64,000 nucleotides of DNA from Candidatus Tayloriibacteriota bacterium (GTDB lineage Bacteria > Patescibacteriota > Minisyncoccia > Phycocordibacterales > PALSA-1337), in the NCBI GenBank assembly GCA_903893855.1, contig CAITNV010000054.1, positions 32,562 to 96,561 on the forward strand, given 5' to 3'. Position numbers and translations under genes: made by a program. Below are positions 2,094-58,585 of this stretch, one piece after another; the stretch's first letter is position 1; each line of letters opens with the position of its first letter. The notes under the pieces are model-generated. The model did no database searches, was not told where the DNA came from, and saw only the letters and a list, made by a program, of their open reading frames with translations.

Positions 2094-4715
2094 ATGTTCT
2101 CATCATATCGAAACTCTAAAAGATGGTGGCACGCTCTCGCAAAGAAACACTGGTATATACGACACCTAAAAGCTGCTGTATTATCAGTGTTTTCTGTTTT
2201 TTTTATCGCTGGGGGGATCTTTTCAATATGGATATCGAGACTTCAGCTACCTGATTTGAGTGCTTTTAATGCAATTCAAGTCCCTCAATCAACAAAAATA
2301 TACGATCGAACGGGCAAAGTTTTACTTTATGACATTCACGAGGATGTCAAAAGAACGGTTGTTCCACTAACCGCAATATCAACCGACATTCAGAATGCGA
2401 CGATTGCAGTAGAAGATAGTGATTTTTATACCAATATGGGGATAAAACCTCTCTCGATTCTTCGATCTGCAGTTGTAGACCTTTTTACTGGTAGTTATGA
2501 CCAAGGTGGTTCGACGATTACCCAGCAAGTTATAAAAAACTCCCTCCTCACACAAGACAAGACTATTAGCCGTAAGATTAAAGAGTGGGTATTAGCTGTT
2601 AAACTAGCCCGCGCAGTTCCAAAACCAGATGTATTAGCAACATATCTTAATGAGACAGGATATGGAGGTAATATTTATGGTGTAGAAGAAGCAACCAAAG
2701 TATTCTTTGGAAAAGATGCGAGCGATGTCGATCTTGCTGAAGCTGCGTATATTGCTGCTCTTCCCCAAGCTCCGAGCTTCTATTCTCCATATGGATCGAA
2801 CAAAGCTGGCCTCGACTCTCGGCAAAAGTTCGTACTCCAAAGAATGCTTGATAATAAATTCATAACCAAGGATCAATACACGAAGGCAATTGCAGAGACA
2901 GTGAATTTTCTTCCGAAAAACACTGGAACATTGCTCGCTCCTCATTTCTCAATGTATGTCCGTAATTATCTTGAAAGTAAATACGGCACCGACACAGTTA
3001 TAAACGGTGGTTTACGAGTAACGACCTCACTTGATTACGATCTCCAACAGAAAATGGAACAGGTTGTGGCGAACTTCTCTCCACAAATTAAATCACAGTT
3101 CGGGGCTACGAATATGGCTATGGTAGCAATCGATCCTACAACAGGCGACATTTTAGCTATGGTTGGATCTGAGAATTATTACCACACACTGAATTCTGGT
3201 AATTTTAATGCGGCGACGGCATATAGACAACCAGGGTCTACCTTTAAGCCTTTTGTATATGCAACTTTATTCGAGAAGGGATACACACCGGACACTGTAC
3301 TTTTTGATACAAAAACAGAATTTTCAACTCTATGTACTGTCGACGGAAAACCAAAAGACCCCTACGCTTCAAGCACTGCCTGCTATTCACCAGTTGAATA
3401 TGATAATAATTACGAAGGTCCTCTATCGATTCGTACGGCTCTAGCCCAATCAAGGAATGTTCCCGCAGTTAAAGCCCTGTATCTCGCAGGTATTGCTGAC
3501 TCAATAAAAACCGCTCAAGATATGGGAATCACGAGCCTCTCTGATTCGAATCGTTATGGTTTAACACTCGTGCTTGGAGGTGGAGAAGTTTCATTGCTTC
3601 AACTAACAAGTGCTTATGGAGTATTTGCGGATGATGGAGTACGAAATGCATACCGATCTGTAATGGAAGTAGATGATAGCTCAGGAAATACACTTGAGAA
3701 ATCAAGCCTGTCTCCAGTTCAAGTAATGCCAATTCAACCTGTACGACAGATTAACAGCATTCTTTCGGATTCGTCTACCGGAGTAAGAATGTCGAGTATT
3801 ACCTCGGTCACCTCTCCGCTTGGACGAACAGTCGCTATTAAAACAGGTACTACCAACGACTATCGTGATGTGTGGGCGGTTGGATATACTCCTAACCTTG
3901 TTGTAGGTGCTTGGGCTGGTAACAATGATGACACACCACTCAATCACAACATCGCTAGCCTTGTTATTACTCCAGTATGGGGAGCATTTATGTCTTTGGC
4001 ACTACCTTCATTCCCCGTACAAAACTTCAAGGTTCCAGACCCTGTGTCTCCAAATTTAAAGCCAGTATTGCGAGGAGTTTGGAAAGGTGGAACTTCTTAC
4101 AAGATAGACAGCTTGTCGGGCAAATTAGCGACAGAATATACTCCACCTTCATTAACTCAAGAGGTAGTACAAAACAATGTCGACAGTATACTTCAATGGG
4201 TTGATAAGAGTAATCCAACAGGACCAATTCCTCTTAATCCAACTGATCCACAGTATCCATATTGGCAATATGGCGTTAGAGATTGGTATACCAATGTATT
4301 TTTACCTGCAAACCCCGGATTTAAAGAAGTCGGAACATCGACAGTAATAAGTGCCCTTATGGCCTCAACGACACTCATTTTACCAGGGATGCCTACGAGC
4401 TATGATGATATTCATGTGCCTGCAAACTTTCCTCAAGTCACTATTACCTACCCCGCATCTAATACAGCTATCGCAGCAAATCAAAAAACGACTGTAGTCT
4501 TTACTGAATCTGGAAAATTTCCGGTACAAAAAACTGATTTATTCATTAACGATCGTTATATCCAGAGCAACATAGGCACACTCAATCAATTCACATTCGT
4601 TCCAAAAGATATTGAGGGGGTAACAATAAACGGAACAAATACCATCAAGCTTGTTGTGTACGACAATATCCTCAATCAAAATTCAACATCTACTGATTTT
4701 ATTGTAAATCAATAA
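2094..4715 (+). CDS. Class A penicillin-binding protein (glycosyltransferase plus transpeptidase, PBP1A family) with a long C-terminal extension
   Basis: There is an N-terminal TM anchor. GT51 motifs EDxxFYxxxGI and GGSTITQQ are present, followed by a transpeptidase-like region. The protein is 873 aa. Confidence 0.9.
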   Translation: MFSSYRNSKRWWHALAKKHWYIRHLKAAVLSVFSVFFIAGGIFSIWISRLQLPDLSAFNAIQVPQSTKIYDRTGKVLLYDIHEDVKRTVVPLTAISTDIQNATIAVEDSDFYTNMGIKPLSILRSAVVDLFTGSYDQGGSTITQQVIKNSLLTQDKTISRKIKEWVLAVKLARAVPKPDVLATYLNETGYGGNIYGVEEATKVFFGKDASDVDLAEAAYIAALPQAPSFYSPYGSNKAGLDSRQKFVLQRMLDNKFITKDQYTKAIAETVNFLPKNTGTLLAPHFSMYVRNYLESKYGTDTVINGGLRVTTSLDYDLQQKMEQVVANFSPQIKSQFGATNMAMVAIDPTTGDILAMVGSENYYHTLNSGNFNAATAYRQPGSTFKPFVYATLFEKGYTPDTVLFDTKTEFSTLCTVDGKPKDPYASSTACYSPVEYDNNYEGPLSIRTALAQSRNVPAVKALYLAGIADSIKTAQDMGITSLSDSNRYGLTLVLGGGEVSLLQLTSAYGVFADDGVRNAYRSVMEVDDSSGNTLEKSSLSPVQVMPIQPVRQINSILSDSSTGVRMSSITSVTSPLGRTVAIKTGTTNDYRDVWAVGYTPNLVVGAWAGNNDDTPLNHNIASLVITPVWGAFMSLALPSFPVQNFKVPDPVSPNLKPVLRGVWKGGTSYKIDSLSGKLATEYTPPSLTQEVVQNNVDSILQWVDKSNPTGPIPLNPTDPQYPYWQYGVRDWYTNVFLPANPGFKEVGTSTVISALMASTTLILPGMPTSYDDIHVPANFPQVTITYPASNTAIAANQKTTVVFTESGKFPVQKTDLFINDRYIQSNIGTLNQFTFVPKDIEGVTINGTNTIKLVVYDNILNQNSTSTDFIVNQ

Positions 4716-24009: not shown

Positions 24010-24206
24010 AATGTAGAAGATAAACTATAGCACAATTTTACCCACAGGGCTTCATTGACTTTTTGCATTTTTTCGACTATTCTTGCATAGAAATGTTAAA
24101 AATCTTATTTTATTATATGGCTCAATAAAGCCATTTAATAAAATAAATACTGATTAGTCTGTTACGGTTCACTCCGTGTACCCCTTCCCGATTTATCATT
24201 TCTATT

Positions 24207-28609: not shown

Positions 28610-29215
28610 TTATTGTTCACTCTTTTCAACGGGAGGTGTATTTGGTCGAATTCTTCGGTCTGTACGCTCACGCCGTCCTCTTTGTCCCCCACCGTTTGAT
28701 GGAGAGCCCGCAATCAGAAGATATTTACGAGGGTTTTGATCAAGGTCGATAAAGTCATCAGCCGCTTCTATAAGCTTGCTCGATGTCGATTTTCCGAAAG
28801 AAACTACTTCAACCTGACATCCTTCATGGATCTGGAGGAATTCAACGAGTGGAATAAAATCTCCATCTCCTGTAACAAGGACAACTGCATCCAGTTTTGG
28901 TGCTAATTGCACGGCATCAATTGCCATACCAACGTCCCAATCGGCTTTTTTGCTTCCTCCTGAGAATATTTGAAGGTCCTTAGTCTTCGCTTCGATCCCC
29001 ATTTTAACTAAGGCTTCGAAAAAGGCTTTTTCGTCCCCCGCTTCGGTTGTAATAACATATGCTACCGCTCGGATGAGAGAACGGTCTCCAAGGGCATCTT
29101 TGACTATTTGTGCGAAATTAACTCGTGCGTGATAAAGGTTTTTTGCTGTATGATAAAGGTTTTGCGTATCGATAAAAATACCAACTCGCTGTTCTTTGTG
29201 TTTAATAACTGCCAT
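28610..29215 (-). CDS. NYN-domain (LabA-like, PIN-related) protein
   Basis: The N-terminus VGIFIDTQNLYHTAKNLY...VAYV is followed by LVTGDGDFIPLVEFLQ, as in NYN/LabA proteins. The C-terminus is a Gly/Arg-rich tail. Confidence 0.75.
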   Translation of the reverse strand: MAVIKHKEQRVGIFIDTQNLYHTAKNLYHARVNFAQIVKDALGDRSLIRAVAYVITTEAGDEKAFFEALVKMGIEAKTKDLQIFSGGSKKADWDVGMAIDAVQLAPKLDAVVLVTGDGDFIPLVEFLQIHEGCQVEVVSFGKSTSSKLIEAADDFIDLDQNPRKYLLIAGSPSNGGGQRGRRERTDRRIRPNTPPVEKSEQ

Positions 29216-29301
29216 AAAAAATAATATAGGCTATAAAAATAATAAATGTAAACGTACGAATACTTGAGAAAATAGAAAGAAGATAACAGTCTTAAGTAAA
29301 A

Positions 29302-29568
29302 CTATTTCTTAAGATCTAACTTTTTTGTTATTGAAGAATAGCGTCGAGGATACTTTTTCTTCAAGTAATTCAAATGTGTCTGTCGATCAGCTACCATGGC
29401 CAAAAGTCCACGTCGTGAGTGATTGTCTTTAGCGTGCTTCTTGAGGTGATTAGCTAGTTCCTCGATCTTTTTTGTAAGAATAGAAACTTGCACTTCTGGA
29501 GAGCCAGTATCTTTGTCGTGAATTGCGACTTCTTTAATAATCTTGCTTTTTTGTTTCGTTGTTAGCAT
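29302..29568 (-). CDS. rpsO: 30S ribosomal protein S15
   Basis: The sequence MLTTKQKSKIIKEVAIHDKDTGSPEVQVSILTKKIEELANHLKKHAKDNHSRRGLLAMVADRQTHLNYL is a clear S15 match. The start was trimmed to the internal Met of the track ORF. Confidence 0.92.
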   Translation of the reverse strand: MLTTKQKSKIIKEVAIHDKDTGSPEVQVSILTKKIEELANHLKKHAKDNHSRRGLLAMVADRQTHLNYLKKKYPRRYSSITKKLDLKK

Positions 29569-29631
29569 CGTGGTACCACAATAGCACAAATGGTCTTATG
29601 ATGCAAGCGATCTGTGTGTTTGTGATAGAAT

Positions 29632-30546
29632 ATGTGTATGTCGCACAACATCTCATCACCAATAGAACGGCTTAAAAAGGAGTTTTTACAGTATGTTGAA
29701 ATTGAAAAAGGGCGCAGTTTAAGCACCGTTTCCAACTATGATCACTATATATCTAGGTTTCTTGATTTCGCTAAGATAAAGGAAGCTTCTGAGATTACTG
29801 ACGATTTAGTAAGAAACTTCAGATTATGGCTTAATCGCCAAGGTTCTTTGAAGAAAAAGACTCAAAATTATTACCTTATCGCTTTTCGGGCTTTTCTTAA
29901 ATATATGGCTAAACGTGGGGTTGCCACCCTTCCTGCAGATAGAATTGAACTTGCCAAGGTTCCCGAACGGTCCCTTGACCTCATTTCAGCATCTGATTTG
30001 AAGCGTCTTTTTGATTCTCCAGACACCTCTACACCCGCAGGGCTTCGTGATAGAGCCATATTTGAGCTACTTTTCTCTACCGGTTTGCGCGTATCTGAGC
30101 TTTGTAGCCTTTCGAGAGACTTAGATATTAAAAGAGACGAATTCTCGATTAGAGGAAAGGGCGAGAAGGTAAGGGTTGTCTTTATATCCGAAAATGCTCG
30201 TAGTGCCGTAAAGAAATACATAGATTCACGGAAAGACATGGACGGTGCAATGTTTGTCCAAATTCCAAACAAAAAGATTAAATCGCAGAAATCATTGCGC
30301 CTAACTGCTCGTTCTGTCGAAAGAATTGTTAGTTACTACGCTGTTAAGGCTGGAATATCCAATAAAGTAACCCCACACGTGATACGGCACTCATTCGCTA
30401 CTGATTTATTGAGAAATGGGGCTGATTTGCGATCAGTTCAGATGCTTCTTGGACACTCAAATATATCAACTACCCAGATTTATACGCATATAACTGATAC
30501 TGAGCTTGGTAATATTCATAAAAAGTTCCATAATAAAGGAAAATAA
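29632..30546 (+). CDS. Tyrosine recombinase XerC/XerD family
   Basis: The motifs RDRAIFELLFSTGLRVSELCSL and HVIRHSFATDLLRNGADLRSVQMLLGHSNISTTQIYTH carry the R..HxxR..Y catalytic set. Confidence 0.88.
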   Translation: MCMSHNISSPIERLKKEFLQYVEIEKGRSLSTVSNYDHYISRFLDFAKIKEASEITDDLVRNFRLWLNRQGSLKKKTQNYYLIAFRAFLKYMAKRGVATLPADRIELAKVPERSLDLISASDLKRLFDSPDTSTPAGLRDRAIFELLFSTGLRVSELCSLSRDLDIKRDEFSIRGKGEKVRVVFISENARSAVKKYIDSRKDMDGAMFVQIPNKKIKSQKSLRLTARSVERIVSYYAVKAGISNKVTPHVIRHSFATDLLRNGADLRSVQMLLGHSNISTTQIYTHITDTELGNIHKKFHNKGK

Positions 30547-31660: not shown

Positions 31661-31757
31661 AGCCGCGTCGCGTACCTTATCTCTTGGTCCGCATACTACG
31701 CGGCTTTGTTTTGTCTGTTTCACGAGTAACATCGATAATGTTACTCGTGAAACGCCG
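31661..31757 (+). terminator. Tandem hairpins downstream of xth: a 9-bp GC-rich stem followed by a T-run (31661-31712), then a perfect 15-bp palindrome (31723-31757)
   Basis: The first hairpin is aagccgcgt...acgcggctt followed by tgttttgt. The second is tttcacgagtaacat-cgata-atgttactcgtgaaa. Both lie between the convergent xth and cca genes. Confidence 0.55.
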
Positions 31758-33428: not shown

Positions 33429-34178
33429 ATGGATAATGTCCAATTAAAAAATAGAGCTATAAGACTTAGAGAAGAGGGTTACTCTTATTCTGAGATAGAA
33501 CGTGCACTTTTTATCCCGAAAAGCACATTATCATATTGGTTGAAGGGGATTTCGCTTAATTCGGATCAAATAATTGGACTAAAGAAACGAAATCTTGAAA
33601 AGGGGAGTAGGGGACGCTTCTCCAATTCAATTAACCTGAAGGTAAGAAAAGTCCATAGAGAGCAGGTCGCGCATTCGAGGGCCAAGTATGAGTTTGATAA
33701 GATAATTAACCCTGTTCACGTGCATTACCCATTCACAACAGTCATAGGTGATACACGCCTAAATAATCTATTTGTAACTGGTGTAAGCCTGTATCTGGCA
33801 CATGGCGGAAAGACTGGTGGATATTTCCAATTTATGAGTTCAGATCACCAGATACTTGGTATTATGATTGATTGGATTGAGGTTTTTCTTAATATTGATA
33901 GGAAATCAATCAAATACAGGCTTATTATTCATGAAAGCTACAAAGATCAAGATATTGAAGGCTATTGGATCAATGTATTGGGGATAAATAAAGAAAATAT
34001 GCAAAAAAGCATATTTACTACCAAGGGTATAGAACGTAATAAGAGGCCTGCATATAAGGGTTCTATTGGTATAGTGATCACCAATATCGAGGTATTTAGA
34101 AGGGTAATGGCTTGGCAAAATCTACTTATCAAGTATTATAAGGGTGTAAGTGATGGGGAAAGTGAATTGCTCCCGTAG
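33429..34178 (+). CDS. Hypothetical protein with an N-terminal HTH motif (LREEGYSYSEIERALFIPKSTLSYWLKG). The C-terminal domain is unknown.
   Basis: The ORF track gives 33363-34178. The start was chosen at MDNVQLK. The 3' end overlaps the tRNA-Arg gene by about 10 nt. Confidence 0.5.
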   Translation: MDNVQLKNRAIRLREEGYSYSEIERALFIPKSTLSYWLKGISLNSDQIIGLKKRNLEKGSRGRFSNSINLKVRKVHREQVAHSRAKYEFDKIINPVHVHYPFTTVIGDTRLNNLFVTGVSLYLAHGGKTGGYFQFMSSDHQILGIMIDWIEVFLNIDRKSIKYRLIIHESYKDQDIEGYWINVLGINKENMQKSIFTTKGIERNKRPAYKGSIGIVITNIEVFRRVMAWQNLLIKYYKGVSDGESELLP

Positions 34179-34240
34179 TGAAATGGATATCACATCAGTC
34201 TTCGGAACTGCTGTTGGGGGTTCGAATCCCTCCGGGAGCA
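34169..34240 (+). tRNA. tRNA-Arg (anticodon TCG), no encoded CCA
   Basis: The 72-nt sequence folds manually into a cloverleaf. It has a 7-bp acceptor stem (GCTCCCG/CGGGAGC), a D-arm, an anticodon loop cTTCGga and a T-arm GGGGGTTCGAATCCCTC. Confidence 0.6.
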
Positions 34241-34304
34241 CAAGAAATATGGCAGAAAAGACATACTTCTGTTAGAATAATGTTGTAAATTTATTGTAGG
34301 TAAT

Positions 34305-34378
34305 GCGGGCATGGTTTAGTGGTAGAACACGTCCTTGCCAAGGACGAGACGGGAGTTCGATTCTCCCTGCCCGCACCA
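34305..34378 (+). tRNA. tRNA-Gly (anticodon GCC), CCA encoded
   Basis: The sequence GCGGGCA...TGCCCGCACCA folds as a cloverleaf. The anticodon stem-loop is CGTCC-TTGCCAA-GGACG and the T-loop is GGGAGTTCGATTCTCCC. Confidence 0.8.
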
Positions 34379-34417
34379 AATTAGCTGAAATATAAGGGTC
34401 ATTGTTTCGGACAAAAC

Positions 34418-34438
34418 TGTGGATAACTCTGTGGATAG
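34418..34438. promoter_or_regulatory. Tandem DnaA boxes (TGTGGATAA, a perfect reverse complement of TTATCCACA, and TGTGGATAG) upstream of yraN
   Basis: The sequence is directly visible at aaaactgtggataactctgtggatagtg. It lies outside the origin region. Confidence 0.45.
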
Positions 34439-34570
34439 TGTTGGTAAAAGACATAAAAAATGGCTTATATTCACAAGGTCATTTTAAAGTAAAAAGTCAG
34501 TTTAGTCAGAATACTCTTATTTTAAGGGCTATATTCGTAAAAAGACATTATTTAACACATTACGGACAAA

Positions 34571-34966
34571 ATGTTTAAGAATACTAAAGAAAAAGGTGCG
34601 GCAGGTGAGGAAATAGCTTGTAAATATCTAGTGAAAAACGGTTTCACTATCCTTGATAGGAATTATCAAAAAAAGTGGGGAGAATTGGATATTGTCGCTA
34701 ATTATAAGGGTATACTTAATTTTATTGAGGTAAAGAGCGTGCTAGGTAGTATAAAGGACGCTAAAGGTGATACAGATGCGGGCTATAGGCCAGAAGATAA
34801 CGTGCATATCCGTAAGCAGGGAAGGCTACGACGAGTAATACAGTCATATTTACAAGAGAGGGGCTATTCAATTGAAACCGATTTCTGTTTTACAATTGCT
34901 ATTGTTGTGATGGATATTAAGCTACGCAGAGCAAAAGTGAGACTTATAGAAAATGTCGTCTTTTAG
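34571..34966 (+). CDS. yraN: YraN family (UPF0102) putative endonuclease
   Basis: The motifs GEEIACKYLVKNGFTILDRNYQKKWGELDIVA...FIEVK carry the conserved YraN core. Confidence 0.8.
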   Translation: MFKNTKEKGAAGEEIACKYLVKNGFTILDRNYQKKWGELDIVANYKGILNFIEVKSVLGSIKDAKGDTDAGYRPEDNVHIRKQGRLRRVIQSYLQERGYSIETDFCFTIAIVVMDIKLRRAKVRLIENVVF

Positions 34967-35037
34967 AAAAACCAATAAATATGGAGTTTTTCGCCTTGCT
35001 GTGGTACGATGTGGAAGTTATTATTTTATTTAGTTTT

Positions 35038-35113
35038 CGGAGTGTGGTGTAACGGCTAACATCCTTGTTTTGGGAACAAGTGACTCCGGGTTCGAATCCC
35101 GGCACTCCGACCA
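35038..35113 (+). tRNA. tRNA-Pro (anticodon TGG), CCA encoded
   Basis: The sequence CGGAGTG...CACTCCGACCA has an anticodon stem-loop CTTGT-TTTGGGA-ACAAG and a T-loop CCGGGTTCGAATCCCGG. Confidence 0.8.
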
Positions 35114-35135
35114 GTTTGTGATAAAATTAGACAAT

Positions 35136-35206
35136 GCGGGATTAGTTAAATGGTATAATAACAGTTTTCCAAACTGTGGTCGGGAGTTCGATTCTCCCAT
35201 CCCGCA
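35136..35206 (+). tRNA. tRNA-Gly (anticodon TCC), no encoded CCA
   Basis: The sequence GCGGGAT...ATCCCGCA has an anticodon stem-loop ACAGT-TTTCCAA-ACTGT and a T-arm GGGAGTTCGATTCTCCC. The D-loop is short. Confidence 0.7.
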
Positions 35207-35786: not shown

Positions 35787-35892
35787 ATATGAATAAAGTG
35801 AGTATGTCCCCAACACGTAGACATACGACAGGGAAGAGGCAACAAAAAACCGCTTTATGCGGTCTTTTGTTGCTTAAACTAAGCAAATAGAG

Positions 35893-36165: not shown

Positions 36166-36311
36166 GAAAATATATTTATTACTATTAATAATGGGTTTAA
36201 CCACTGCAATCATTATATCGTAAGGGTTTTTTGACGCAATAGCCTAAAAATAGCGACACAATATTACCTTATCGGCAAATATGTGTCGCTATTTTTTATG
36301 GTGACGATATA

Positions 36312-38034: not shown

Positions 38035-38604
38035 TTAGAGAACTTTGTCGATGATGCCGTATTTTTTGCCTTCTTCTGCTGACATGAAGAAATCTCGATC
38101 AACGTCCTTCTCAATTTTAGAGAGTGGCTGTGAAGTATTTTTTGCTAACATTTTGTTCAGATTCTCTCGGAGCTTGAGAATGTGTTTTGCGCTGATCTCG
38201 ATATCTGAAGCTTGTCCCTCAGCTCCTCCTAATGGTTGATGAATCATAATCTCAGAATTCTCGAGGGCGTATCGTTTGCCTTTTTCTCCAGCTGACAAAA
38301 CAAGAGCTGCACCTGAAGCAGCGATTCCTACGCAGACGGTAGAGACATTATTTTTGATGTGGTTCATCGTGTCGATAATTGCCAAAGTTGCGGTAACTGA
38401 TCCTCCCGGAGAATTGATATAAAGATTGATGTCTTTTTTTGAATCTTCTGATTGGAGGAAAAGGAGTTGCGCAATAATAATGTTAGCGACATTGTCGTCA
38501 ATTACTCCACTCAAAAAGACAATGTTGTCTTTTAATAGACGTGAATAGATATCGTACGCACGTTCGCCAAAATTTGTTTTTTCTATAACGGTTGGTATAA
38601 GCAT
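38035..38604 (-). CDS. clpP: ATP-dependent Clp protease proteolytic subunit
   Basis: The motifs [18 protein letters not shown] and catalytic Ser/His/Asp context ([16 protein letters not shown]) are present. Confidence 0.92.
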
Positions 38605-38684
38605 GTCGGCATTATTGCATACTATTTTAAATTAATAAAGTAGCGTGAAACATCTTTAGTGATATACTATTTTTATACAACTTT

Positions 38685-39437
38685 ATGCGACTGCACAGAT
38701 TTTTTATCGGAGACTTTTCTGAAACTAAGAAACACAACGGAACGAACGATGTAAGGGGAATCGTTGAGGGCAGTACTATCACCTATGCACAGGGCACACA
38801 CCAGTGGCAGAGGGTTTTTCGGTTTGGCGCAGGTGATCGTGTTTTACTTTTTGATGGTTCAGGAAATGACTATCTCTGTGAAATCAAGGAATATCAAGGC
38901 GAAACGACGATTCTAACTGTGGTGAGTGCGGAACCAAATAATGTGAAACCAAGTCGCGATGTTATTCTTGTTTCGGCGTTAGTAAAGAAAGATACATTTG
39001 AATGGATTGCTGAGAAAGCGACGGAGTTAGGTGTTTCACGGTTAGTTCCACTTCTCGCTGAACGAAGTGAAAAGAAAAACATCAATGAAGATCGTCTCGA
39101 GAAAATAATTATCGAAGCGTCTGAACAATCAGGTAGAGGCACTTTAATGGGACTTGATTTGGTCAAAGACTTGTCGCTTATCCTAAAGGACAAACGTCTT
39201 ATATCACATGCAATTGTCTTTGAACCAACAGGAAGAAAATTTGAAGCAAATGATTTTGACCCTAATGCTTTTGATCAAGAAAAACCGCTAACAGTTTTCA
39301 TTGGCCCTGAAGGTGGATGGTCAGAAAAAGAACTTGAATTGTTTGTCGAAGCAGGTATTCCGGTGGTCTCTCTTGGGCCACAAATATTACGTGCAGAAAC
39401 TGCAGTCATAGCTGCCCTTAGTTTGGTTGTTTTTTAG
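38685..39437 (+). CDS. rsmE: 16S rRNA (uracil1498-N3)-methyltransferase RsmE family
   Basis: The protein starts MRLHRFFIGDF. A PUA-like N-terminal domain and a SPOUT C-terminus (FIGPEGGWSEKE) are present. Confidence 0.8.
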   Translation: MRLHRFFIGDFSETKKHNGTNDVRGIVEGSTITYAQGTHQWQRVFRFGAGDRVLLFDGSGNDYLCEIKEYQGETTILTVVSAEPNNVKPSRDVILVSALVKKDTFEWIAEKATELGVSRLVPLLAERSEKKNINEDRLEKIIIEASEQSGRGTLMGLDLVKDLSLILKDKRLISHAIVFEPTGRKFEANDFDPNAFDQEKPLTVFIGPEGGWSEKELELFVEAGIPVVSLGPQILRAETAVIAALSLVVF

Positions 39438-39602
39438 TTGGTATCCACAACGTCTGTATAATAGTGAAGAACTTTCCCTCGTATCACTTGACGCTTGATT
39501 ATTAACCCCATTTGCTATAAGCTTACGGCAATCAGAGAGTTACTCTCTTTTTTAATTTATACGTTTTATTAACACCATTATTTATTAACTTACGCAACAT
39601 AT

Positions 39603-41768
39603 ATGCAACGCGATTATCCACTTGAGAGAGTTCGAAACTTCGGTATCATTGCCCACATCGATGCGGGTAAGACTACGACATCAGAGCGCATTCTTTACTA
39701 CACAGGAATGATCCATAAGATCGGAGAGGTTCACGATGGTGCAACTACAACCGACTGGATGGAACAAGAACGAGAGCGAGGTATCACTATTACTGCCGCT
39801 GCGATTACTTGTTTCTGGAATCCAACATATGCAACTGGTCTTAAGGGTCCAGATGGTAAGCCTGATGTTTCTCACAAAGTTCGTTTCAATGTTATCGACA
39901 CACCAGGACACATTGACTTCACAGTTGAAGTGAAGCGATCACTCCGAGTGCTCGACGGTGCTGTTGTGGTATTCGACGGTGTTGCGGGAGTGGAGCCACA
40001 GTCTGAGACCAACTGGCGTTACGCAGATGAGAGCAATGTGCCACGACTCTGTTTCATCAATAAGATGGACCGAACTGGTGCAAGCTTCGAGAAATCATTC
40101 GCATCTATCCTTGAGCGTTTGAATAAGCACGCTATTCGATTCCAACTTCCTATTGGTCTTGAAGGCGAACATAATGGTGTCGTAGACCTCCTTCGAATGA
40201 AGGCATATTACTTCGATGGCGAAAAAGGTATTAATGTTCGTGAAGAAGAGATTCCAGCTAATCTCGTAGACGATGCAAAGAAATACCGCGCTGAGTTAAT
40301 TGAGAAAGTTGTTGAACATGATGACGTCCTTATGCAGATGTATCTTGATGGAAAAGAGATTGCACTTGCTGAATTAAAGAAGGCTATTCGTAAGGCGGTT
40401 ATTGCCAATAAAATCTTCCCAGTATTTACAGGTTCTGCTTTGAAGAACGTTGGAGTTCAGCTCGTACTTGATGCGGTTGTTGATTACCTCCCATCTCCAC
40501 TCGATATCCCTGCTGTTAAAGGTATTAACCCAAACACAGGTGAAGAAGTTCTCCGACATGCATCTGATAGCGAACCGTTTTCTGCTCTCGCTTTCAAACT
40601 CCAGAACGACCCATTCGTAGGACAGCTCACATTCTTCCGAGTGTATTCTGGATCTATTGAAGCTGGTACTTATCTATATAACTCTTCAACTGGTAAGAAA
40701 GAACGACTTGGCCGAATCGTACGATTGCAAGCTAACGATCGAGAAGAAGTTAAGAAAGTATATGCTGGAGAAATTGCAGCAGCGGTGGGTATTAAGGATG
40801 CACTTACATCTAATACATTCTGTGATGAAGAGAATCCAATCGTCCTTGAAACTATTAAATTCGTTGACCCTGTGGTGTCTCTACGTATTGAGCCTAAGAC
40901 AAAAGCCGATCAAGAGAAAATGGGTATGGCTCTACGAAAGCTTGGTAATGAAGATCCAACATTCAAAATCTCATCAAACAGTGAGACAGGTGAGACTATC
41001 ATCTCAGGTATGGGTGAACTACACCTTGAAATTATGGTTGATCGAATGAAGCGAGAGTTCGGTGTGGAAGCAAACGTTGGTAAGCCTCAGGTAGCGTACC
41101 GAGAAACTATTCTTGGTGAAGCAGAAGCTGAACATAAATACATCAAGCAGACTGGAGGTAAGGGTCAGTACGGTCACGTAGTCCTAACACTACGCCCAAT
41201 GCAGCCGCTTGTTGAGGGTGCGAAGATCCCAAAGAATGTTAGCCGATATGATGACTTTGAGTTCATTAACTCTATTAAAGGAGGTGTTATTCCAAACGAA
41301 TTCATTCCTGCGGTAGAGAAGGGTGTTCATGAGGCTATGGATCGAGGTATTGTGGCTGGTTATAAGATGGTAAATGTATCTTGTGAGCTAACATTCGGTA
41401 GCTATCACGATGTGGACTCATCTGAAATCGCTTACAAAATCGCTGCATCTCAGGCATATCAGGATGCTGCAAAGCGTGCAAAACCCGTTATCCTTGAGCC
41501 TATTATGAAGCTCGAAGTACTTTTCCCAGATAAGTTCATGGGAGACGTTACAGGCTCTATTTCTTCAAAACGAGGTACAATTGAGGAAATGACTGAGCGA
41601 GGTCAGGCTAAAGTGCTCCATGCTAAGGTTCCTCTTTCAGAAATGTTCGGATACACCACACAGCTTCGTTCTATGACATCAGGTCAGGGAAGCGCAACAA
41701 TGGAATTCGATCATTATGAAGTGGTTCCAAAGAACGTAGAAGCTACAATTATCGAGGCAAGAAAGTAG
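39603..41768 (+). CDS. fusA: Elongation factor G
   Basis: The motifs IRNFGIIAHIDAGKTTTSERIL and DTPGHIDFTVEV are present. The protein is 721 aa. Confidence 0.95.
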   Translation: MQRDYPLERVRNFGIIAHIDAGKTTTSERILYYTGMIHKIGEVHDGATTTDWMEQERERGITITAAAITCFWNPTYATGLKGPDGKPDVSHKVRFNVIDTPGHIDFTVEVKRSLRVLDGAVVVFDGVAGVEPQSETNWRYADESNVPRLCFINKMDRTGASFEKSFASILERLNKHAIRFQLPIGLEGEHNGVVDLLRMKAYYFDGEKGINVREEEIPANLVDDAKKYRAELIEKVVEHDDVLMQMYLDGKEIALAELKKAIRKAVIANKIFPVFTGSALKNVGVQLVLDAVVDYLPSPLDIPAVKGINPNTGEEVLRHASDSEPFSALAFKLQNDPFVGQLTFFRVYSGSIEAGTYLYNSSTGKKERLGRIVRLQANDREEVKKVYAGEIAAAVGIKDALTSNTFCDEENPIVLETIKFVDPVVSLRIEPKTKADQEKMGMALRKLGNEDPTFKISSNSETGETIISGMGELHLEIMVDRMKREFGVEANVGKPQVAYRETILGEAEAEHKYIKQTGGKGQYGHVVLTLRPMQPLVEGAKIPKNVSRYDDFEFINSIKGGVIPNEFIPAVEKGVHEAMDRGIVAGYKMVNVSCELTFGSYHDVDSSEIAYKIAASQAYQDAAKRAKPVILEPIMKLEVLFPDKFMGDVTGSISSKRGTIEEMTERGQAKVLHAKVPLSEMFGYTTQLRSMTSGQGSATMEFDHYEVVPKNVEATIIEARK

Positions 41769-41780
41769 TTCTAAAGAAAA

Positions 41781-41889
41781 TTACCCGTTTGTATTTGAGA
41801 GAAACTCTCGGAAGTTGCGAAGGCAACTGAGAGGGAGACGTCCGGTCACCAGACCGGAACGTCGGTTTCTCGAAAATACAAACGGGTAA
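41781..41889 (+). other. Highly structured intergenic element. A 16-bp perfect inverted repeat (ttacccgtttgtattt / aaatacaaacgggtaa), extendable by a 7-bp helix (gagaaac / gtttctc), encloses two internal hairpins (gttgc-gaag-gcaac and gacgtccggtc-acca-gaccggaacgtc).
   Basis: Base-pairing was read directly from the sequence. The element lies in the 316-nt fusA-tuf spacer. Confidence 0.6.
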
Positions 41890-42084
41890 TTTTCGTTGTA
41901 ACCCTTTCATTGCTTGTACATGTCGTTTAATAGTTGACTTCTATAAGCCCATTTGTTAGGATACAAAGTACGCATTTTTCTTGCGTTGGTTTGTATATAT
42001 TATCAATTTTATTAACAATTTAACTTTCTTTTGTGAATACGAGGCTCTCGCTTCGAACGTTACAAAATAAAGCAATAAAATCAT

Positions 42085-43275
42085 ATGGCAGCATCAGAAT
42101 TCAATCGTTCAAAGCCCCATGTAAACGTTGGTACTATTGGCCACGTTGACCACGGCAAGACTACTTTGACTACATCTATCCTAGCAGTACAAGCTAAGGA
42201 TGGTTTGGCTACACTTAAGGCTTATTCAGATATTGCAAAGGGAGGTACAGTTCGAGACGATTCAAAGATCGTTACGATTTCTCTTGCACACGTAGAATAC
42301 GAGACTCCAAATCGTCACTACGCTCATATCGATGCCCCAGGACATGCCGACTACATTAAGAACATGATTACCGGTGCTGCCCAGATGGACGGTGCTATTC
42401 TTGTGGTATCTGCCCTCGACGGTGTTATGCCACAGACACGAGAGCATATTCTTCTTGCGTATCAGGTTGGTGTGCCAAAGATCGTCGTTTTTCTAAACAA
42501 GTGCGATATGGTTCCTGAAGCTGACCTTCTTGACCTCGTTGAGGAAGAAGTTCGAGATCTTCTCACAAAGAACCATTATGACGGTAAGACTGCTCCAGTT
42601 GTTCGAGGTTCAGCCCTAAAGGCCCTTGAAGGAGATCCAGTTTACGTCGCTAAGATAAAAGAGCTTATGAATGCTCTTGATACATACATCCCAACGCCTG
42701 TTCGTGAAGTTGATAAGCCTTTCCTTATGCCTATTGAAGACATCTTCTCTATTGAAGGTCGAGGAACTGTAGTTACTGGTCGTATTGAGCGAGGTATGGT
42801 TAAGGTTGGTGAAGAAGTTGAGATTGTTGGATTTAAGGATACAACAAAGACTACTATCACTGGTATTGAAATGTTCAACAAGTCTCTTAAAGAGGGAATT
42901 GCTGGAGACAATGCCGGACTTCTCCTACGAGGTACTGGAAAGGATGACGTTTCTCGTGGTCAGGTTCTTGCAAAGACTGGCTCAGTTAAGCCACACACAG
43001 AATTTGAGGCTGAGGTTTACATCTTGAAGAAGGAAGAGGGTGGACGACATACTCCATTCTTCACAGGATACAAGCCACAGTTCTATATTCGAACTACAGA
43101 TGTTACTGGTGAAGTAACACTTGCAGAAAAGGTTGAAATGGTTATGCCAGGTGATACAGTAACATTCAAGGTAAAACTTGTTGCTCCTGTAGCTCTTGAT
43201 GCACAGCAGCGATTTGCCATCCGAGAGGGTGGAAAGACAGTCGGTGCCGGTGTCGTAACTAAAATAGTTGCATAA
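42085..43275 (+). CDS. tuf: Elongation factor Tu
   Basis: The motifs [26 protein letters not shown] and NKCD are present. The protein is 396 aa. Confidence 0.97.
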
Positions 43276-55711: not shown

Positions 55712-58585
55712 ATGGAAATTTTCTCACCGTCACAAGAGTCAAAAAATTTACAGACGCCTGAACAAGAATTGGCGTATCTACGTGAACGTCTTGCTGCAAA
55801 AGAAAAGGAGGTTGCGGCAATTCGCCAAGAAGGTGGTCCAGATAAGAGTCGCGATGCTCTAGTGCAAGAGACTCTTCATGAATACAAAAACACTCCGAAA
55901 GAACAACTTTTACATAAAGACTTTGCTCTTGCAAAAGAAAAGTCGGAAGCTATTGTCCTCGAACTTTCGCCTGAAGAACACGATGAGAAGATCGCCGAAC
56001 TTTTAGGAATTCTTCAGACTCATGGCGTACGAAATGCTCTTGATATCGTAGGTAAAATGAATAACCCTCATGTTGAGAGGGATTTTGAACGTTTCCTCGT
56101 GCAATACATCAAAGCAGGCTTCGAGCTACAAGGACTTCCGGAGAAGACTCCAGAGTTTAAAGCGCTACATATGACGCTCTATGAGATTACATTGCCCGAG
56201 AAGACCGATGAGGGTAAAGAGCGCGCTCTCAAAGAAGTGATTTCTTCAATGGAGCAGTTTTATGCTGGTATGATGTCGGTCGGTGGGGAAGCGACTGGCT
56301 CTGGAACGGGCTATTTTACTATAGAGCTTGCGGTGGCGAATCATAGTGATGAATTCGCTTTCCACGTTGCGGTGCACGATAGTAAGAAGAGCCTTTTTGA
56401 GAAGCAAATACTCGCGGTTTTCCATAATGCAAAGATCATCGAGAAGAAAGACGATTACAATATTTTTAATGAAGAAGGAGTGACTGTAGCTGCAAGTGCT
56501 CGCTATGCCAAGAATTCCGTTTGGCCACTTAAAACATATGATAAATTCGATCATGATCCGCTAAATATTCTTCTCAATAGCTTCTCAAAAATAAAGACGC
56601 ATGGAGAGGGTGCTGCGGTGCAGATCATAATTCGTCCTGCAGGACAAGGTCCAGCTAAAAAGTATCATAAGATTCTCGAAGAGATCATGAAGGGCGAGAA
56701 AGTAAGCGAAGCAATAGCTAATAGCGAGAGTGGGCTTATAAAGCATTTTGATGGCTTTATTAAAGGCGTTTCTGATTTTGTAATGCCTGCAACTAAAGAA
56801 GAGAAAGAAAAGGCAAAAGAAAAGAAGCGCGAAGCTGCACAGCGAGTCGACCAGACAGTAGTCGAAGCTATTAAAGAGAAATTAGCTTCTCCGATTATGG
56901 CTATAGACTTGAGGATTATAGCTTCTGGTGAGAATGAGACGACCGCGCAAGCTATCCTTGCGGACATAGAGTCTTCATTTAATCAATTCGAAAATACTTC
57001 GGGTAACCGTGTACAGTTCGATCATGCTAAAAAAGGTGCTTTACGGGACCTTCTACATGATTATACTTTTAGACTCTATGATGAAAAGAGCCAAATGTAC
57101 GCTTCTATAAAAGAGCTCACATCGATTATGCATTTCCCAGCTACGGTATTGAAATCATCTCCTCATCTTAAGGTTGCAAAGGCTGGTACTGCACCGGCAC
57201 CGCTTGATCTTCCTCGTCCTCCGGCATCGGCGGCTTCTTCTGCTGGTTCAAATGAACAAGCCAATACTCCTGCCCCCGGCTACGTCCTCCTTGGGGTTAA
57301 TCGAGATCGCAACACCGAGACTAAGGTCTTCATGACAGCAGAGGATAGACTCCGACACTTCTACGTTATCGGACAGACTGGTACTGGTAAGACCACGCTT
57401 TTGAAAAATATGCTTGCGCAAGACATTGCCGCAGGGGAGGGTGTCTGTATGATTGATCCACACGGTTCTGATATTCAGGATATTCTTTCTCTTATTCCCA
57501 AGTCTCGTTACGAAGATGTAATTTATTTTGATCCATCGCATACCGCGCGTCCTATGGCGCTTAACATGCTCGAATATGATCGCCGTTTCCCTGAGCAGAA
57601 GACTTTCGTCGTTAACGAAATGCTCTCTATCTTCAATAAACTTTTTGATATGAAGACAGCGGGAGGACCGATGTTCGAACAATACTTTAGAAATGCCGTG
57701 CTTCTTGTTATGGAGGATCCGGAGTCGGGTAATACCCTGCTTGATGTATCGCGAGTTCTGTCTAATAAAGTGTATCGTGAGATGAAGATTTCTCATTGTA
57801 AGAACCCTATCGTCGTGCAGTTCTGGAAAGAAGTCGCAGATAAAGCGGGAGGTGAAGCATCGCTTGCTAACGTCGTGCCATACATCACAAGTAAGTTCGA
57901 CGTGTTCTTGTCGAACGATATTATGCGACCGATTATTGCGCAGGAGAATTCAAGTATTAATTTCCGTGAGATTATGGATACTAAAAAGATTCTGCTGGTC
58001 AATCTTTCAAAGGGTCGCCTCGGTGACATTAATGCCAACCTTATCGGTCTTATTATCGTAGGTAAAATACTGATGGCTGCACTTTCTCGTGTGGATGTTG
58101 TAGGTAAAATGGGTCCGGACGGTAAGCCACTTGCTCTCGCACCATTTTATCTCTATATCGACGAGTTCCAGAACGTTACGACTGATTCTATTTCAACTAT
58201 TCTTTCTGAAGCTCGTAAGTACAAGCTCTCGCTCTCTGTCGCACACCAGTTCATCGCACAGCTTGAAGAGGGGATACGTGACTCAGTCTTCGGTAACGTT
58301 GGTTCTATAGCTGCATTTCGTGTGGGTGCTGAGGACGCCGAATATCTCGAGAAACAGTTCTCGCCGGTCTTCAATGCAAAGGACATTATGTCAGTCGACA
58401 ATCGTAATGCTTACATTAAAATGCTCGCAAATGGTCGCCCAGTTAAGCCGTTTAATATCGAGACCTTGCCTCCTCCGAAGGGTGACGTATCAGTAGTTGA
58501 AAGCATTAAAGAGCTCTCATATCTAAAGTACGGCAAAGATCGCGCCACTGTTGAAGACGCCATCATGTTGAAATACAAAAAATAA
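55712..58585 (+). CDS. Large soluble ATPase: an about 480-aa coiled-coil N-terminal region fused to a VirD4/TraG/TraD-like (type IV coupling protein family, TraM-recognition-type C-terminus) P-loop domain
   Basis: Walker A is GQTGTGKTT. MIDPHGS resembles the T4CP DPKGE motif. Walker B is LYIDEFQN. The C-terminal SLSVAHQFIAQLEE..IAAFRVGAEDAEYLEKQF parallels the VirD4 xxTQSxAQL...Ae.ls tail. No TM helices are present. Confidence 0.55.
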   Translation: MEIFSPSQESKNLQTPEQELAYLRERLAAKEKEVAAIRQEGGPDKSRDALVQETLHEYKNTPKEQLLHKDFALAKEKSEAIVLELSPEEHDEKIAELLGILQTHGVRNALDIVGKMNNPHVERDFERFLVQYIKAGFELQGLPEKTPEFKALHMTLYEITLPEKTDEGKERALKEVISSMEQFYAGMMSVGGEATGSGTGYFTIELAVANHSDEFAFHVAVHDSKKSLFEKQILAVFHNAKIIEKKDDYNIFNEEGVTVAASARYAKNSVWPLKTYDKFDHDPLNILLNSFSKIKTHGEGAAVQIIIRPAGQGPAKKYHKILEEIMKGEKVSEAIANSESGLIKHFDGFIKGVSDFVMPATKEEKEKAKEKKREAAQRVDQTVVEAIKEKLASPIMAIDLRIIASGENETTAQAILADIESSFNQFENTSGNRVQFDHAKKGALRDLLHDYTFRLYDEKSQMYASIKELTSIMHFPATVLKSSPHLKVAKAGTAPAPLDLPRPPASAASSAGSNEQANTPAPGYVLLGVNRDRNTETKVFMTAEDRLRHFYVIGQTGTGKTTLLKNMLAQDIAAGEGVCMIDPHGSDIQDILSLIPKSRYEDVIYFDPSHTARPMALNMLEYDRRFPEQKTFVVNEMLSIFNKLFDMKTAGGPMFEQYFRNAVLLVMEDPESGNTLLDVSRVLSNKVYREMKISHCKNPIVVQFWKEVADKAGGEASLANVVPYITSKFDVFLSNDIMRPIIAQENSSINFREIMDTKKILLVNLSKGRLGDINANLIGLIIVGKILMAALSRVDVVGKMGPDGKPLALAPFYLYIDEFQNVTTDSISTILSEARKYKLSLSVAHQFIAQLEEGIRDSVFGNVGSIAAFRVGAEDAEYLEKQFSPVFNAKDIMSVDNRNAYIKMLANGRPVKPFNIETLPPPKGDVSVVESIKELSYLKYGKDRATVEDAIMLKYKK

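Follow-up and report, generated by a model that had tools for sequence, protein, structure and literature searches.

The region analyzed here is a 64-kb stretch of DNA (hereafter the window), in which fusA (EF-G, 721 aa; 39603..41768, plus strand; assigned from the ORF list and the Pfam families of an identical product) is followed by tuf (42085-43275, ORF list). Contigs encoding an identical EF-G (L001-L008) originate from lake metagenomes, and the nearest genomes are Patescibacteria/Paceibacteria MAGs. In the window, fusA is preceded by a minus-strand gene for ClpP and by the gene for RsmE (38035-39603), an arrangement also found in the related contig L117, and not by rpsL-rpsG. The order rpsL-rpsG-fusA is kept in L118, L121, L123 and L124, and the str operon is broken in the window lineage. 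Genes lie mostly on the minus strand from about 5 to 29 kb and on the plus strand from 29.6 to 62 kb, and the switch at approximately 29200-29650 could mark a replication origin or terminus. Further downstream (55712-58585), directly behind the ribosomal-protein, SecY, Adk and Map genes, a protein of 957 aa is encoded that has DUF8128/DUF87 domains and faint TraG-like ATPase domains; proteins resembling type IV secretion pilins are recurrent in the related contigs.

The fusA-tuf spacer is 316 nt long according to the ORF list, as the first-pass annotation had stated, and contains a folded element of 125 nt that begins 5 nt 3' of the fusA stop codon. This element (41773..41897, plus strand) consists of two outer arms and a three-way-junction core, and is defined by helix search, folding and the covariance model R1 (88.3 bits, E = 6e-23). 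The left outer arm, AAAGAAAATTACCCGTTTGTATTT (41773..41796, plus strand), carries an A-tract at its outer edge, and its inner ~12 nt fit the loose consensus ..RTGYnTTTnA. The right outer arm, AAATACAAACGGGTAATTTTCGTT (41874..41897, plus strand), has a T-rich run at its end. Together they form a perfect outer stem of 21 bp, in which GAAAATTACCCGTTTGTATTT (41776-41796) pairs with AAATACAAACGGGTAATTTTC (41874-41894), or a stem of 24 bp with one mismatch (41773-41897). The inverted repeat had been described as 16 bp long; it is real but longer. The 7-bp helix and the two internal hairpins described with it are all present in the sequence.

A GA/GA 2x2 internal loop separates the outer stem from helix P2, which comprises the 7-bp pairing GAGAAAC/GTTTCTC plus one U.G pair. 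The 5' junction strand GAGAAACTCTCGGA (41799..41812, plus strand, as are the following segments) includes the 5' side of P2, the CUC of P3 and an unpaired GGA. It is followed by hairpin 1, which is of the short type, AGTTGC-GAAG-GCAACT (41813..41828), and represents a variant private to this element, with U-A pairs at the sites occupied by tandem G.A in other short copies. The central junction strand GAGAGGGAG (41829..41837) leads to hairpin 2 of type A, GACGTCCGGTC-ACCA-GACCGG-A-ACGTC (41837..41863), whose loop is of the ANYA form and whose 3' side has a bulged A. The 3' junction strand GGTTTCTC (41864..41871) supplies the 3' side of P2. The RNA fold of 41775-41895 has a minimum free energy of -71.1 kcal/mol, compared with -29.1 +/- 3.4 kcal/mol for shuffled sequences (z = -12.3; none of 200 shuffles was as good). 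The opposite strand reaches -65.9 kcal/mol (z = -12.0), and both orientations fold to nearly the same structure. The sole ORF of the element encodes 53 aa on the minus strand (41749-41910); as the orientation of the core changes from strain to strain (see below), this ORF cannot be conserved. The stem is A+T-rich with a branched apex of 77 nt and the tail UUUUCGUUGU. A terminator consensus scan does not call the element, since its loop exceeds the 8 nt allowed by a simple scan of this kind.

Downstream of the element, and outside it, lies a TG-extended, promoter-like site for tuf (TTGACT-17-TAGGAT; 41934..41962, plus strand), followed by a conserved tuf 5' leader of about 120 nt (41963..42084, plus strand) with the hairpin ACGCATTTTTCTTGCGT (41970-41986) and the conserved sequence AAGCAATAAAATCATATG ahead of the start codon. 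Both the promoter-like site and the leader are kept in L117, L118, L119 and L121, whatever gene lies upstream, and this region may be an uncharacterized leader of the tuf-S10 transcription unit. The 316 nt can therefore be divided into the fusA terminator position, occupied here by the element (about 125 nt), and the tuf promoter and leader (about 150 nt). The first-pass annotation had started from the premise that fusA and tuf are normally adjacent and co-transcribed. This premise fails in the clade, where the distance between the two genes ranges from 96 nt to over 4.8 kb in 80 relatives, often with genes between them, and where most of the relatives examined have a terminator hairpin after fusA and tuf has a conserved promoter and leader of its own.

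Most of the relatives examined carry a hairpin with an A-tract, stem and T-tract directly after fusA, and in those without the core the stem measures 12-29 bp. L117, with an EF-G 99% identical to that of the window and the same ClpP-RsmE-fusA-tuf order, has a perfect hairpin of 20-21 bp, AAAGAAACAATGCCCCCGTG-att-CACGGGGGCATTGTTTCTTT, which has only the outer AAAGAAA in common with the window arm. L118 and L121, which together with L117 are the three closest relatives without the element, also have long perfect hairpins after fusA (29 bp in L118, 18 bp in L121). None of the post-fusA hairpins of the relatives examined represents an empty site with the arms of the window. In the window itself, perfect or nearly perfect plain hairpins of 15-18 bp occur in intergenic positions at 24105-24146, 31717-31753, 35839-35873 and 36246-36296, some of them with A-tract/T-tract edges. 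These are probably native terminators, representing the same kind of hairpin without the apical module.

No match was obtained when the window was compared with the Rfam 15 covariance models at gathering thresholds, and nothing relevant was found in the fusA-tuf spacer at E <= 10. Seven other copies of the element searched at E <= 5 returned generic long-hairpin miRNA models only, far below threshold. The Rfam/Infernal check proposed beforehand thus matched no family to the element. The three-way shape brought to mind hammerhead, twister-sister, hatchet and pistol ribozymes and the SRP RNA; none of them had an Rfam match at permissive thresholds, and the core of the hammerhead is absent from the junction as read from the sequence. 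The exact hairpin-2 pattern had no matches in representative genome contigs (where the source species is evidently absent) or in viral contigs, and the gapped junction pattern had none in viral contigs. Likewise, blastn of the element against phage and plasmid collections gave no match. The idea that the arms are guide- or spacer-like sequences was rejected after two arms searched in viral contigs produced no matches. In the full-text literature searched, no such element or repeat family is described for Patescibacteria, and the family reported here is apparently undescribed.

The element has a single copy in the 64-kb window, including a covariance-model search with filters off. A homologue was identified in L009 by nhmmer, without use of any pattern, directly 3' of the fusA stop codon and on the opposite strand, next to an EF-G gene whose product is 91% identical to that of the window. 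The junction strands GAGAAACTCTCGGA, GAGAGGGAG and GGTTTCTC are identical in the two elements, whereas both hairpins and the 24-bp arms differ yet still pair. A gapped pattern built from these junction strands matched 28 JGI metagenome contig stretches, which after removal of duplicates represent 23 unique sites in contigs of related Patescibacteria; the junction conservation among these metagenome copies is imposed by the search pattern itself. At least four copies are present on Ga0302319_10000106, a 162-kb contig of a relative whose ClpP is 89% identical to that of the window and whose EF-G is 97% identical to that of L009.

The common order of the core is GAGAAACUCUCGGA - hairpin 1 - GAGAGGGAG - hairpin 2 - GGUUUCUC, and its consensus reads RAGAAACUCUCGGA - hairpin 1 - GAGAGGGAG - hairpin 2 - GGUUUCUY. 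Two forms of hairpin 1 exist, a short one of 16 nt with tandem G.A and a long one of 25 nt, and likewise two of hairpin 2, type A (the form in the window) and type B; all four combinations are represented. The alignment shows strong covariation, with 95% of cells paired and 23 of 44 pairs changed on both sides, values that none of 500 shuffles reached. The R1 model recovers all copies and gives weaker, diverged matches in other Paceibacteria, namely two copies in L058 and one each in L042 and L063. The diverged copy of L063 again lies right after fusA, and the loop and bulge of hairpin 2 are retained in the distant copies of L058 and L042. Solo hairpins or half-elements that would mark a parent insertion sequence were not found in the about 1.3 Mb of DNA searched.

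The arms of the family are mostly perfect inverted repeats of 20-30 bp (up to 43 bp) with A-tract/T-tract edges. In 16-17 of 20 copies the A-tract is located at a fixed position of -19 to -22, mirrored by the T-tract of the opposite arm. The 7 bp of P2 are conserved and the inner ~12 bp of the arms follow the loose consensus RTGYnTTTnA; positions -13 to -18 are unconstrained and the outer 8-15 bp are unique to each locus. No identical arms occur at two non-orthologous loci among the copies. Orthologous copies (L090-/L101, L096/L113 and L097/L111) show mirrored substitutions and even mirrored indels. Pairing in the stems is almost purely Watson-Crick, with 13 G.U and 9 A.C among about 1100 pairs, and a strand test based on these two mismatches revealed no asymmetry and did not identify an RNA strand. 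The mirrored changes and the almost purely Watson-Crick pairing point to copying of one arm from the other at the DNA level and not to selection at the RNA level, and we infer that the arms are kept complementary by intrastrand template switching at palindromes. No direct target-site duplication is visible at the copies; their flanks are inverted repeats, with an occasional TGAA...TGAA beside the core.

Comparison of orthologous sites shows that the core is present in some genomes and absent from others, flips in place and exchanges hairpin modules between copies. At the 3' end of fusA, the window species, L009 and L104 carry the element, which is absent in L117, L118, L121, L123-L125, L010 and L059. 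The core after fusA is reversed in L006, L009 and L104. L006, which shares 96.6% identity and the EF-G protein with the window, is a strain of the same species; in it the core is identical, including the private hairpin-1 variant of the window, and reversed (0 of 55 core positions differ). The arms of these two strains differ at 7 of 25 positions, and the junction in L006 is that predicted by flipping the GA-core-GA segment, save one extra T. Zero substitutions were found across the 125 nt of the element between strains that differ by about 3% outside it. The arms of L009 and L104 are homologous (17 of 23 positions) and their hairpin 1 is of one type, but hairpin 2 belongs to type B in one of the two and to type A in the second; both hairpin modules differ at the orthologous sites of L090- and L101 and of L096 and L113.

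Rearrangement breakpoints were also located inside the cores. L106 is without about 820 nt that in L111 separate two inverted copies (3361-4339), including a 173-aa ORF without Pfam match located between them; a single hybrid copy remains in L106 (6412-6511), joined at AAGAAAC. L092 (2280-2362) contains the only core with a short hairpin 1 and a type B hairpin 2, has mismatched arms, and loses synteny inside the core relative to the 92% identical L105 (632-762). This core looks like a recombinant of two copies, with an assembly chimera as the alternative. Hairpin loops just downstream of fusA in L058 (8180-8191) and L059 (8205-8216), two relatives without the element at this site, carry GAGAGTTTC, in which 11 of 12 bases equal the junction strand. 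About six matches of this kind are expected in the DNA searched and seven were found, and the two loops may be either a relic of a lost copy or due to chance.

Most copies adjoin a stop codon (-18 to +30 nt), and the family is multi-copy and located at the 3' ends of unrelated housekeeping genes, such as those for RecA, FtsW, aminoacyl-tRNA synthetases and SecDF. Two copies adjoin tRNA genes (L109, 840-912, and L095, 226-299). A cluster of four tRNA genes is also present in the window at 34169-35206. One copy of L058 (13332-13422) lies between rplB and the next ORF of a ribosomal-protein cluster; the corresponding L2-S19 spacer of the window has no significant structure (z = -1.2). Among the top 25 Pfam families of 127 neighbouring ORFs, no transposase, recombinase or mobile-element family is recurrent. 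At about 9 of 11 independent sites the core-sense strand runs antisense to the gene that it adjoins, with the window as one exception. Of the two strands, this one has the better fold in 18 of the 23 copies and in each of the four distant ones, by 5-6 kcal/mol in most copies. The antisense placement and the better core-sense fold are two observations that do not yet fit together. The copy search in relatives had been set beforehand as a test of the suggestion that the element is a miniature inverted-repeat or REP-like sequence, and its outcome (multiple copies of the core at many unrelated loci, orthologous spacers of the closest relatives without it) supports this suggestion.

Several known systems were compared with this family. 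The nearest analogues are the pneumococcal SPRITE and BOX repeats, the neisserial Correia elements and REP/REPIN, with SPRITE and Correia being the most alike. A conserved core with locus-specific arms is unusual for repeats of this kind. SPRITE resembles a rho-independent terminator, and BOX elements are composed of interchangeable modules (PMC10969869). Like them, the present elements are small, non-coding, dispersed and stable repeats, here with A-tract/T-tract stems at gene ends and exchangeable hairpin modules. Unlike SPRITE and BOX, which were compared by their description in a review, they occur in another phylum and have no sequence similarity to them; moreover, in SPRITE and BOX the whole unit is conserved, whereas in the present family the apical three-way junction is conserved and the stem is locus-specific. 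Correia elements (204 bp in the same review) have terminal inverted repeats, internal promoters and an IHF site, are co-transcribed with their neighbours as long hairpins that are cut by RNase III, and have been reported to invert in place (PMC10969869). The elements described here resemble the Correia elements (about 100-200 bp) in size and in their inverted repeats, and the pair formed by the window and L006 shows a flip of this type. The terminal repeats of Correia elements are conserved (26 bp) and accompanied by a TA target duplication. In contrast, the present family shows no conservation of its arms and no visible duplication, and it yielded no promoter call.

REP sequences are extragenic palindromes at gene 3' ends that form imperfect hairpins, with extrahelical bases when read on one strand, and show an orientation bias (PMC3733652). 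Hairpins 1 and 2, with their 3' bulge and similar CCAGCAGG apices, are reminiscent of REP/REPIN, which are mobilized by RAYT transposases, and of palindrome-associated elements derived from IS200/IS605. Unlike REP, the present elements have no GTAG/CGTC head outside the stems, with CGTC inside hairpin 2 only, and no RAYT, TnpA or Y1-transposase is found among the top Pfam families listed for the 127 neighbouring ORFs. Conservation in REP falls on the stems, the reverse of the situation described here. Other mobile elements target palindromes: IS1397 inserts in REP loops, and class C group II introns are found next to terminator stems. As for these palindrome inserters, a hairpin would be a safe landing site, with a conserved insert between the halves of a host palindrome, and insertion into a host palindrome would explain the locus-specific arms. 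However, palindrome inserters are autonomous and protein-coding, while the insert in the present elements is about 100 nt long and does not code for protein, and an empty site with matching arms was not found. Integron attC sites are also folded, imperfect palindromes; they measure 57-141 nt, contain extrahelical bases and a 7-bp inverted pair with AAC/GTT at its end, and have an apex that varies and is branched in some cases. They were rejected as a candidate: GAGAAAC/GTTTCTC fails the middle positions of RYYYAAC/GTTRRRY, and the copies are scattered in both orientations, with no same-orientation arrays and no adjacent integrase. As in MITEs, the element is short and non-coding (125 nt) and shows presence/absence polymorphism at orthologous fusA sites. 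The fit to MITE or REP sequences is partial, because no conserved outer termini, target duplication or parent transposase was seen at the copies examined, and the most fitting description of the family is that of small repeats in which the structured core is conserved and the arms are specific to the locus.

The element is a stem-loop located straight after the fusA stop codon, where relatives have canonical terminators, and it retains the native A-tract/T-tract frame; it is therefore read here as a terminator with an apical module. We consider it probable that the element represents the terminator hairpin of fusA carrying an approximately 75-nt apical three-way-junction module of a dispersed, MITE/REP-like family of Paceibacteria. 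The hairpin would be an intrinsic, bidirectional-looking terminator, whose long stem and U-rich run would end or stabilize the fusA mRNA in either orientation of the core, and tuf would then be transcribed from its own promoter. The apical module may spread, or be homogenized, among terminator hairpins by insertion into their apices or by gene conversion. A role of the element in termination or in 3'-end stability is plausible. Several observations do not follow from this explanation. The U-run after the stem is modest, being just UUUUCGUUGU, the terminator scan makes no call, and the window holds one copy only. Neither a direct target-site duplication nor a transposase or recombinase was found at or near the copies, nor were any two loci with identical arms, so that transposition is at most a candidate mechanism. 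An empty site with matching arms was likewise not found. In addition, a strong terminator would be oddly placed inside the ribosomal-protein cluster of L058. Finally, the conserved asymmetric features of the core (tandem G.A, bulged A and purine-rich junction) are unaccounted for and, together with the better core-sense fold, hint at a strand-specific function.

These asymmetric features lead to another possible, although rather unlikely, explanation, in which the three-way junction itself is a functional folded nucleic acid and the terminator hairpins are merely its carriers. The core could act as an RNA (a protein-binding element, a processing signal or a new self-cleaving ribozyme) or as folded single-stranded DNA recognized by a recombinase or an HUH-type transposase. 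In favour of such a function, the junction strands are the same in the window and L009 despite an EF-G identity of 91% and differing hairpins and arms, and the window and L006 have no core differences and 7 of 25 in the arms. The non-Watson-Crick features are kept in the family (tandem G.A, the 3' bulged A and ANYA loops closed by C-G) and persist in the distant L042, L058 and L063; the 5-6 kcal/mol advantage of the core-sense fold in most copies, and the deletion and inversion joints at or inside the core, are in line with the same idea. On the other hand, no Rfam family was found even at E <= 10, no protein gene is recurrent near the copies, and the core-sense strand would usually be off the mRNA of the adjoining gene, to which it is antisense at about 9 of 11 sites. 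Gene conversion among copies could also keep the cores alike without function, and the conservation of the junction in metagenome copies is a product of the search pattern.

More specifically, we regard it as doubtful that the ~75-nt junction constitutes a new class of functional folded nucleic acids of Patescibacteria. The features of such a class would be the invariant purine-rich junction strands, the two ANYA-loop hairpins with a 3'-side bulge or mismatch, and the tandem G.A, and it could serve as a module for a recombination or transposition enzyme at hairpin apices or as an RNA displayed on terminator stems. A functional folded core would account for its retention next to arms saturated with mirrored changes, and for the precise joining of flips, swaps and deletions at the core.

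The in-place inversion could also be taken as a sign of an invertible switch, in which the arms recombine, the core flips, and read-through or an internal promoter changes (phase variation). The identical core found both ways round at the same site of one species, with L006 differing from a flip by one T, suggests such a mechanism, as do the end of the L006 contig inside the element and the reported in-place inversion of Correia elements (PMC10969869). However, 7 of 25 arm positions differ between the two orientations, which indicates old alleles and not a rapidly switching population, seven contigs from several samples share one orientation, the scan called no promoter-like site in the core on either strand, and the fold is nearly the same both ways round, making a switch quite improbable. 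A cis-regulatory RNA specific to this locus, evolved to make tuf independent of fusA and named as the first candidate in the first-pass annotation, is very improbable: despite the location between the two genes, the extremely stable fold and the absence of substitutions in 125 nt between strains about 3% apart elsewhere, the same core follows many unrelated genes, is missing after fusA in the closest relatives (L117, with a 99% identical EF-G, L118, L121 and L123-L125), is reversed in L006, L009 and L104, and the uncoupling is ancestral, given that relatives have a post-fusA terminator and a conserved tuf promoter and leader.

A terminator hairpin with a dispersed apical module is thus the explanation we prefer. 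The genomes of Patescibacteria (CPR) are tiny, and in the literature searched no repeat family has been described for them. The present analysis indicates that the gene-end terminator hairpins of these bacteria host a conserved, exchangeable structured module, which marks sites of inversion, deletion and allele turnover. The R1 model provides a searchable tool for the annotation of intergenic regions in Patescibacteria genomes, and such structures should be read with caution and not as gene-specific regulators. Should the core turn out to have a molecular function, it would represent a new class of structured RNA or DNA in a lineage with almost no experimental genetics.
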